Shown one piece after another: positions 3,656-8,009 of a stretch of 21,855 nucleotides of DNA (positions are counted from its first letter, which is position 1; every line of letters begins with the position of its first letter). The stretch is from a virus (Duplodnaviria > Heunggongvirae > Uroviricota > Caudoviricetes), in IMG/VR virus record IMGVR_UViG_3300031555_005217, positions 135,047-156,901 of that record; one strand, 5' to 3'. Position numbers and translations under genes: made by a program. The notes below the pieces were generated by a model. It was not told the DNA's origin. It did not search any database and was given only the letters and a program-made list of their open reading frames with translations.

Positions 3656-3666
3656 TATAAAAAGAA

Positions 3667-3690
3667 AACGATCTTTTAATTAAGATCGTT
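3667..3690 (-). terminator. Rho-independent terminator closing the tRNA/ncRNA unit
   Basis: AACGATCTT/AAGATCGTT 9-bp inverted repeat followed by TTCTTTTT on the minus strand. Confidence 0.75.
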
Positions 3691-3850
3691 TATAAAAAGG
3701 AGGTATGCAAACTTTTATTTTGAAAGGAGGATAATAAGGTAAGACCTAGCATAGCAGAGTCGGCCACACAATCTTTTTCCAAGCATTTAGCTCCACATAG
3801 AAGTATCTACTCACACTATCTATGATACCTAATTTCTAAACCTTATTTTA
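3667..3850 (-). ncRNA. candidate sRNA: long irregular hairpin plus two anti-Shine-Dalgarno tracts
   Basis: No ORF. Closing stem 3733-3740/3840-3847 (8 bp perfect) with further inner helices. ACCUCCUUU (3696-3704) and CCUCCUUU (3723-3730) lie just before the terminator. Confidence 0.45.
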
Positions 3851-3872
3851 TATTATAACTTACATTAAACTT

Positions 3873-3949
3873 TGGTGGACCCGGAGGGGCTCGAACCCGC
3901 GACCCGCACATTATGAGTGTGCCGCTCTAACCAACTGAGCTACGGGTCC
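3873..3949 (-). tRNA. tRNA with CAT anticodon, probably tRNA-Ile2 (lysidine type) rather than Met
   Basis: 77-nt cloverleaf. GGACCCG/CGGGTCC acceptor stem, GCACA-CTCATAA-TGTGC anticodon arm, GGTTCGA T-loop, encoded CCA. The GGACC acceptor resembles Bacillus/Mycoplasma tRNA-Ile2. Confidence 0.93.
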
Positions 3950-4196
3950 AAGAAAGAAAACGGGTCGCGCTGTGAATGCTACCGTCATTACATCCTCTGA
4001 AGTTTTTCTCGCTCCTTAACAGCTTTCAGGAGTTAGGATCACGCGTCTTACTTCCAACCTTTTTGAGGAACTGATCTCACTGTTCACCTTGGCGCCCCTC
4101 ACAAGCTAGCTTCGGCAATTGCCTGTCAAACTAATTTCTTTTACTTGGCGCAAGTGTCTCCGGGTTTATAAGAGTTTTCCTTCTCGAGTTAACTTA
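3950..4196 (-). ncRNA. candidate ~235-245 nt structured RNA between tRNA-Lys and tRNA-CAT, unclassified
   Basis: About 45% GC by hand count (111/247) in an otherwise very AT-rich context, with no credible ORF. 11-bp closing helix 4174-4184 with 3951-3961, plus several nested stems. Confidence 0.6.
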
Positions 4197-4272
4197 TGGT
4201 GAGATCGGAGAGATTCGAACTCTCGACCCCATGATTAAAAGTCATGTGCTCTACCATCTGAGCTACGATCTC
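4197..4272 (-). tRNA. tRNA-Lys(TTT)
   Basis: 76 nt. GAGATCG/CGATCTC acceptor stem, CATGA-CTTTTAA-TCATG anticodon arm, GTTCGAA T-loop, encoded CCA. Confidence 0.96.
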
Positions 4273-4303
4273 AAGTAATTATTAACTATGTATTTATATA
4301 CAA

Positions 4304-4465
4304 TTAATAATTATTATAATCTACTTTTTTAGCTCTTTTTCTATTATAAACTTTTTTAGATTGAACAATATTCATTCTAGTTTTCTTTTGAACTTCTAAA
4401 TGTAATTTGTTTGGAATGTTAACTGGCTTTTGTTCCTTGCCATCAATTTTACCTTTAATTTGCAT
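4304..4465 (-). CDS. small basic protein, 53 aa, ArfA-like C-terminal motif (tentative)
   Basis: Missing from the ORF track. RBS AAGGAG 9 nt upstream, class I promoter at 4482-4526. MQIKGKIDGKEQKPVNIPNKLHLEVQKKTRMNIVQSKKVYNRKRAKKVDYNNY*. Confidence 0.75.
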   Translation of the reverse strand: MQIKGKIDGKEQKPVNIPNKLHLEVQKKTRMNIVQSKKVYNRKRAKKVDYNNY

Positions 4466-4654: not shown

Positions 4655-4722
4655 ATTTAACGTCTCCTTCCTTTGCGGAGACGAGTCCGTTCAGTGGACC
4701 ATGCATAATATTATACAATTAG

Positions 4723-7697: not shown

Positions 7698-7740
7698 AAT
7701 AAAAAGCTCCCTTTAGAATAAAGCAAGGGAGCTTTTTATT
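7698..7740 (-). terminator. strong Rho-independent terminator
   Basis: 16-bp perfect inverted repeat 7698-7713/7725-7740 (GCTCCCTT core) with T-runs. Confidence 0.8.
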
Positions 7741-7796
7741 TTGAAACGTGTGTTTAGGAGGTAACTAATATTTCAAGAAGTATTTTTCTACTTCAA
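7698..7796 (-). ncRNA. candidate ~100-nt sRNA with anti-SD tract
   Basis: Lies between an ATTGTATA promoter-like motif (7802-7809) and the terminator. 5' hairpin GAAGTA/TACTTC (7777-7794), ACCUCCU at 7756-7762, no ORF. Confidence 0.45.
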
Positions 7797-7808
7797 TATA
7801 ATATACAA

Positions 7809-8009
7809 TTAATTTTTATTATTTTCTAATCAGTTCATATAATAGTTTCTAATTTTATTTAATTCTTCTTTTTTCTCTCTTAATTCTGTTTTAGATAAAG
7901 AAGAGGTATTATTCTTTATCAGTCCATCTACCTTATCTATTTCATCTATTAAGTGTAATGAAAAATTATCTACTCCTAATAGCTTACCTAATTCCATATA
8001 TGTACTCAT
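7809..8009 (-). CDS. hypothetical protein, 66 aa if the TGA at 7830-7832 is read through (59 aa otherwise)
   Basis: Missing from the ORF track. RBS AAAGGAG, ATG 8009: MSTYMELGKLLGVDNF...RNYYMN[W]LENNKN*. Confidence 0.7.

Follow-up and report, generated by a model that had tools for sequence, protein, structure and literature searches.

A candidate anti-Shine-Dalgarno small RNA in the trailer of a phage tRNA unit and its recurrence in related phages

The window analyzed in this study, a stretch of 21,855 nucleotides, is the terminal part of a 156,901-bp virus record that has 26% GC and is 88% complete. The coding density was 0.86 under code 4 and 0.70 under code 11, and TGA is read as Trp in this phage genome. 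The phage family is of a large, uncultured, gut or rumen type, and the coding-density test showed that it spans code 4 (this genome, G000), code 11 (G001) and code 15 (G002). The SD usage of the phage would fit a Firmicute host. The neighbourhood of the locus described below consists of short minus-strand genes and three tRNAs (Ser, Lys and CAT). A 53-aa basic protein encoded there (4307-4465, minus strand) is kept in relatives at 59-92% and has no Pfam or PHROG match; its C-terminus is, as we take it, reminiscent of ArfA/BrfA. A conserved two-hairpin leader is located immediately 5' of tRNA-Ser(GCU) (4655-4705, minus strand), and is also seen in L117 (6340-6405), L005 (380-414) and L007.

On the minus strand, the elements are arranged in the order of tRNA-CAT, an AT-rich stretch, a folded domain, UCCUCCUUUC, an A-rich linker, ACCUCCUUU and a terminator. 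The likely start of the precursor is a promoter-like motif, ATTGTATA, at 4297-4304 (minus strand) upstream of tRNA-Lys; nine copies of this motif were found in the window against 3.3 expected (0/100 shuffles). No terminator was called between 4297 and 3691. The first tRNA of the unit, tRNA-Lys(UUU) (4197-4272), is followed by a GC-rich structured spacer (3950-4196), which would be part of the same precursor and is composed of two separately mobile modules without a match in Rfam. Its 5' half was also found in L116 (299-422) and its 3' half in L004 (1922-2026), L005 (2622-2727) and L117 (9869-9974), and both halves are present in L339. The modules in the relatives sit upstream of a cytidylyltransferase-like gene, which this genome does not have here. 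The 3' module shows a covarying stem (ACUCC/GGAG vs ACUAC/GUAGU) and a possible GCUGU/ACAGC pseudoknot. The second tRNA, tRNA-CAT (3873-3949), has an encoded CCA and an identical copy in L117. Since G1-C72, C4-G69 and C5-G68 are paired, we presume from the identity rule that it is probably a lysidine tRNA-Ile2. A possible internal promoter at 3852-3866, with TATAAT at 3857-3852 and degenerate surroundings of the ATTGTATA type, is weak and gained no support from the early-promoter matrix (score -7.9, 21st percentile).

The trailer beyond tRNA-CAT contains a multibranched 5' domain (3733-3847, minus strand), for which no homolog was found in any relative. The sequence-only reading had taken this domain to be a single hairpin of about 115 nt; folding gave instead an 8-bp closing stem (3847-3840 with 3740-3733) around two firm hairpins and a weak one, with hairpins near 3824-3796 and 3775-3741. 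Downstream of the domain, on the same strand, lie anti-SD tract 1 (UCCUCCUUUC, 3722-3731), the complement of an AGGAGGA-type SD, which together with the A-rich linker reads CCUCCUUUCAAAAUAAAA (3713-3730), and anti-SD tract 2 (ACCUCCUUU, 3696-3704), the complement of an AGGAGGU-type SD, with CAU directly 5' of it. An intrinsic terminator with a 10-bp stem and a U-run (3660-3691) would form the 3' end of the RNA. The positions of both tracts between tRNA-CAT and the terminator are thus as originally described, and so is the match to 16S rRNA: each tract agrees with 9 nt of the Firmicutes 16S tail as found in B. subtilis, GAUCACCUCCUUUCU (PMC5732282). Tract 2 is the terminator-proximal seed, and it is this seed that is kept in relatives. 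No terminator separates the tRNA from the trailer, and co-transcription is predicted. The U-run, the tRNAs, the neighbouring genes and the ATTGTATA motifs are all on the anti-SD strand. On the plus strand, the ATG at 3705 lies 1 nt past AGGAGG and opens a frame of nine codons (MQTFILKGG, 3705-3734), and the second SD has no start. This frame was rejected as a gene, in agreement with the earlier view that the plus strand carries no credible one.

The occurrence of two CCUCCUUU in the 181-nt trailer was reproduced in 0 of 20,000 dinucleotide shuffles, in which a single copy appeared in 0.6%. A genome Markov estimate put the chance of the tandem at about 1.6e-6, and 0 of 100 window shuffles contained it. 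The main tRNA array of the genome (93-101 kb) has no comparable anti-SD tract. The stability of the fold is modest, with z = -1.8 to -2.1 for the 5' domain and z = -1.6 for the whole trailer. The proposal that the tail is unstructured held only in part. In the full trailer the seeds are partly paired: the 7-nt seed of tract 1 is fully unpaired with a probability of 0.11-0.25, and that of tract 2 with a probability of 0.04-0.44. Without the 5' domain, tract 1 becomes largely free (0.93; 0.45 for tract 2).

Direct DNA searches for the trailer gave no homolog in cultured phages, IMG/VR or JGI contigs (25 JGI matches, all unrelated). The relatives were therefore reached without use of the motif, via proteins, namely the 53-aa cluster gene and a cytidylyltransferase gene that relatives have in this cluster. 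L001, being 100% identical, adds no information, and L002 and L007 do not cover the trailer. A common layout, a tRNA, a variable spacer, an unpaired ACCUCCU and a terminator, was found in L005/L117/L118, L116, G001 and G002. In L117 and L118, whose shared proteins are 81% identical in the median, a 56-nt spacer separates the identical tRNA-CAT from ACCUCCUUA, and the terminator after it is not the one seen here. A homologous trailer is present in L005, where it follows a different tRNA-CAT. In L116, tRNA-Thr is the last tRNA, with ACCUCCUUA 4 nt beyond it and then a third terminator; this is the shortest natural version, about 60 nt. Since the spacers of these relatives differ and the seed is kept, the 115-nt domain is replaceable and the seed ahead of the terminator is the part retained. 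With relatives' spacers ranging from 4 to about 240 nt and their folds unrelated, the idea that the hairpin is an essential part found no support. What did recur in related phages, as the original proposal demanded, is the anti-SD seed and its place at the end of the tRNA unit.

The more distant genomes show the same layout. In G001, a 217-kb genome that uses code 11 and has 72 shared proteins (median 46%), the tRNA-Leu stands alone and is followed by a multibranched domain, UCACCUCCUUUUC and a terminator. In G002, which is 144 kb long, uses code 15 and has 42 shared proteins, the tRNA region closes with tRNA-Gln, a hairpin, ACCUCCUUUCU and a terminator, and additional anti-SD tracts lie within and before the tRNA array. 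The layout thus holds irrespective of the tRNA, the spacer (4-240 nt) and the genetic code, and reaches relatives at about 40% protein identity. A tie of the layout to recoding was rejected, because it is present in G000, G001 and G002 under three codes. The seeds of the relatives and of the sister units described below are predicted to be unpaired (P 0.62-0.996). The sequence around the seed is not alignable across relatives, and the copies share a core, ACCUCCU, which is exactly complementary to the canonical SD.

Two further copies were found by a motif scan, unlike the protein-fetched relatives. G010 (L127; 204 kb, 63 shared proteins, 41%) and L166 each have a 17/18 match to tract 1 plus the linker after a tRNA-CAT, in a unit that sits between tRNAs and not ahead of a terminator. 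The seed and linker are invariant and predicted to be unpaired between two hairpins, in which two double-compensatory and two single changes and no broken pairs were found, in a comparison of two sequences only. In 7.2 Mb of loci, the 18-mer gave only three distinct matches at <=1 mismatch (this genome, G010 and L166). The placing of L166 in the family would rest on its likeness to G010, with no support from the marker protein.

The position of the seed was examined against controls. Among tRNA-proximal terminator calls, four of six had the seed within about 38 nt upstream, compared with none of 96 other terminators (p = 3.5e-6; lenient terminator rule, own genome and the redundant L340 left out, relatives few and not all independent). 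The two misses are extra folds within the same tRNA units. In 54.6 kb of sense-strand intergenic DNA, own genome included, ACCTCCTT occurred seven times versus 0.45 for permuted words, and 8 of 11 seeds were within 35 nt of a terminator versus 57 of 400 control positions. Of 120 tRNA-plus-ACCTCCTTT matches in bacterial genomes, only 2 had a free seed before a terminator. Unselected tRNA trailers of unrelated phages showed weak enrichment at best, and the feature is therefore claimed for this family alone. As a phage-wide feature, tRNA-plus-ACCTCCTT was rejected: the generic scans had no matched control and were dominated by terminator stems, neighbouring tRNAs and chance. We conclude that the trailer is an RNA feature that is real and conserved within the family.

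All four intergenic sense-strand anti-SD 7-mers of the genome precede terminators; two are in the trailer and two are in stand-alone units. The sister unit in the window (7698-7809, minus strand) consists of a ATTGTATA motif, a hairpin, an exposed ACCUCCU (7762-7756; P unpaired 0.93) and a strong terminator. In the second (genome 131,330-131,440), a ATTGTATA motif and a 5' hairpin precede an ACCUCCU that is likewise exposed (P unpaired 0.98), and a terminator follows. Both are gene-free. The 13-nt A-rich linker recurs at 7734-7746 in the former unit (p = 0.004 vs shuffles); since 17 of 478 genome windows score as high, this match is only suggestive. At 131,330-131,750 (minus strand) of G000 (L370), three small non-coding units stand in tandem, each behind a TTGTATA motif. 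In this tandem, one unit ends in ACCUCCU and a terminator and its neighbour in UUUCUCCUUU, the complement of AAAGGAG, the common SD of the phage.

Several other features were noticed in the relatives. A recurring hairpin, the loop of which could pair with a downstream tract, is found in L005 (2560-2620 and 560-640) and L117 (6520-6600 and 9800-9860), with the pairings ACCCU/AGGGU, AGCUCU/AGAGCU and UCGCU/AGCGA and the conserved words GACA and UGAAUAUAG; it is a candidate for a new pseudoknot RNA motif. In L005 (3195-4138), the 5' part of a tRNA-CAT precedes a TGA-containing frame that, judged by eye, resembles a homing endonuclease. A second tRNA-CAT, complete and different from the first, comes next, and the anti-SD tail is kept. 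G001 has a long ORF-free stretch (120,600-121,290) upstream of tRNA-Leu. G002 has a tRNA spacer that looks like a pseudoknot and contains ACCUCCUUUCU, as well as two anti-SD tracts in tandem (95,030-95,140 and 111,055-111,075), and in G006 an anti-SD tract directly follows a phage tmRNA (about 56,700). A repeat array with the word CATACAGCAA and tRNA-like pieces lies after a DUF2828 gene in L116 (9369-10020) and L117 (18186-19120), and gives a weak YrlA (Y RNA-like) match of 45 bits versus a cut-off of 69.

As to function, we lean towards the view that the trailer is a trans-acting, csRNA-like anti-SD small RNA that is cut from the tRNA precursor and blocks initiation on long-SD mRNAs, a reading to which we give somewhat better than even chances. 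Transcription would start at the ATTGTATA motif at 4304-4297, before tRNA-Lys, and a single precursor extending to the terminator would contain tRNA-Lys, the structured spacer, tRNA-CAT and the trailer. A cut at the tRNA 3' end would free a trailer of about 190-210 nt, which the 5' fold and the terminator would protect. The seeds would then bind AGGAGG(U/A) in ribosome-binding sites, in competition with the 16S tail, and lower initiation on long-SD mRNAs. The two seeds in this copy would cover both AGGAGGA and AGGAGGU, and may stay partly hidden as long as the 5' domain is neither cut nor refolded. Action in trans is best argued by the sister units, because there is nothing inside them to regulate in cis. 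With only 7-9 nt of seed and no chaperone, a stable duplex is hard to achieve.

The targets would most likely be a broad set of host mRNAs, with the phage's own strong-SD mRNAs as a possible second set. Host mRNAs are favoured because the full AGGAGGU, the complement of tract 2, precedes just 9 of the 205 phage genes; AGGAGGA, the complement of tract 1, precedes 16 of 205, seven of them early. The early phage genes, whose AGGAGG-led mRNAs had been suggested as possible targets, do not stand out: AGGAGG is found before 10 of 66 early, 8 of 105 middle and 8 of 34 late genes. In the target prediction among phage start regions, none pairs better than the seed alone predicts, and the flanks pair no better than shuffled flanks (p 0.14-0.71). 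As downstream genes are mostly not preferred either, broad and probably host-directed targets are favoured. A more far-reaching version, about which we are doubtful, is that the trailers and stand-alone copies together form a target-general 16S anti-SD mimic that damps translation of strong-SD host mRNAs while most phage genes, having a partial SD, escape, and that possibly also times the TGA-recoded late genes of the phage. AGGAGGT tends to precede genes that contain TGA (6/9, p = 0.03) and genes of the late class (4/9, p = 0.04), a weak bias with uncorrected p values. If true, such a mimic would be an RNA-only route to redirect host ribosomes.

Other explanations of the tract must be weighed against the trans-acting small RNA. 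The RNA might be a decoy for a protein, in that a mimic of the 16S 3' tail titrates a host factor that binds or cuts there (an anti-phage endonuclease, Era or a 16S 3'-end maturation factor) and thereby shields ribosomes or slows their assembly. Several copies do match further into the 16S tail (ACCUCCUUUCU in G002), and the A-rich motif adjoining the seed is conserved. The link to tRNA units is compatible with counter-defence, and RtcB is present in relatives. However, Era needs a 5' GAUC, which is missing from all copies, and the 3' flank is variable (UUUC, UAUU, AAAC, AAUU), so that the SD complement alone remains. A precedent is offered by E. coli MazF, which cuts off the 16S anti-SD end (PMC7781912). 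We regard the decoy as unlikely. Even less can be said for a cis element, in which the seed would pair with an RBS on its own precursor or, in read-through RNA, with that of the next gene, and shield the gene from the strong tRNA promoter. While the downstream gene in L005 ranks 1 of 19 start regions, it ranks 88-98 of 205 here and 15/19, 22/38, 69/252 and 22/214 elsewhere. In L116, the bases at the seed could pair with the RBS of the cytidylyltransferase gene that lies upstream; against this, downstream genes carry their own promoters past the terminator, and the stand-alone units have no gene to regulate.

We likewise consider it improbable that the opposite strand is the functional one. There, a 5' hairpin and a strong SD, with or without a mini-ORF, would trap ribosomes as CreT does, or an SD-stabilised RNA would be antisense to the tRNA precursor. 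AT-rich promoters are able to fire in both directions; nevertheless, the terminator U-runs and the ATTGTATA motifs favour the anti-SD strand. An antisense ATG at plausible spacing is present in L005, L117 and the G002 array end, but here only 1 nt separates the ATG from its SD, no start accompanies the second SD, and both G001 and the 7.7-kb sister unit are without a usable ATG. The antisense frames are random in length (21, 47 and 54 aa, or absent, in relatives) and not homologous. Although CreT sets a precedent for an SD with a mini-ORF (PMC10097628), an anti-AUG is also typical of csRNAs, where it was reported in 53 of 61 (PMC3091779). Finally, we see little likelihood that the tract has no function of its own, as a chance or vestigial pyrimidine tract or as part of termination or 3'-end processing. 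The seed surroundings are indeed unalignable across relatives, and generic scans yield many chance or terminator-stem matches. Yet the same 7-mer occupies the same position amid unrelated spacers and terminators, and neither the other terminators of the relatives (0/96) nor the bacterial tRNA-plus-ACCTCCTTT matches (layout in only 2/120) reproduce it.

The reading as a trans-acting anti-SD small RNA was compared with known systems. Above the cut-off, Rfam gave tRNAs and a tmRNA only, with no family for the trailer, and no theta (HDV-like) ribozyme, which would be a nested double pseudoknot beginning at the tRNA 3' end, was found either by Rfam or by eye. A type I antitoxin, which would be antisense to the ORF of a small hydrophobic toxin led by a usable RBS, was rejected, as only the 9-codon frame with 1-nt spacing is present and no frames are conserved. 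CreT of Acinetobacter is an RNA toxin with an SD and a mini-ORF, tied to CRISPR-Cas (PMC10097628). Both CreT and the trailer (by prediction) work through SD/anti-SD at initiation, but CreT bears the SD and a start codon and is of opposite polarity. RsaE of S. aureus, RoxS of B. subtilis and RNAIII are Firmicutes sRNAs that bind SD sequences through C-rich seeds, which are unpaired and present in several copies. The trailer resembles RsaE/RoxS in its repeated C-rich seeds, but these are ACCUCCU and not UCCC; there is no UCCC in the tail and no Rfam match to this group. Bacillus ncr1241 gave a weak Rfam match to the tail of 27.7 bits, far under the 60-bit cut-off, which does not indicate homology. 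The E. coli 3'ETS-leuZ is an RNA left over from tRNA processing that ends at a terminator and sponges RyhB and RybB. The trailer would likewise be left after tRNA 3' processing, but is phage-encoded and has a 16S-tail seed.

Anti-SD small RNAs are known from bacterial chromosomes, and the phage tRNA-operon case appears to be undescribed: no precedent was found in Rfam or in the literature searched, the coverage of which is incomplete. The word 'tRNA' is nowhere in a 2025 review of phage sRNAs (PMC12197685). If the trailer RNA is real, phage tRNA clusters gain a second product beyond tRNAs and a simple RNA means of biasing translation. The layout of tRNA, exposed ACCUCCU and terminator is a searchable signature, and the 7-nt seed and the L116 version of about 60 nt make the candidate RNA easy to test in a laboratory Firmicute.

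Streptococcal csRNAs are CiaR-dependent and carry anti-SD and anti-start sequences in an unpaired region, being otherwise poorly conserved (PMC3091779, PMC4438229). The CiaR box NTTAAG-N5-TTTAAG has three one-mismatch matches in the window, which is chance level, and none is near the unit. The csRNA nonamer [A/C]UCCUAAA[A/C] is absent from the trailer and occurs once in the sister unit, its count in the window being at chance level, and the Rfam csRNA models gave no match at E <= 10. Because it has no CiaR box, no nonamer and no Rfam match, the trailer is not a member of the csRNAs, but it is predicted to work like them. As in csRNAs, where the sequence is CCUCCU, the anti-SD lies in an unpaired stretch between two stem-loops, partly masked here and fully exposed in relatives; there are several copies per genome, and little is conserved beyond the seed. 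With regard to an anti-start, the copies differ: here CAU abuts tract 2 with a 0-nt spacer, in L005, in L117 and at the G002 array end its distance is like that in an RBS, and several copies are without it. Unlike csRNAs, the RNA would be phage-encoded and mostly the trailer of a tRNA precursor, with two seeds and a larger 5' domain in this copy.
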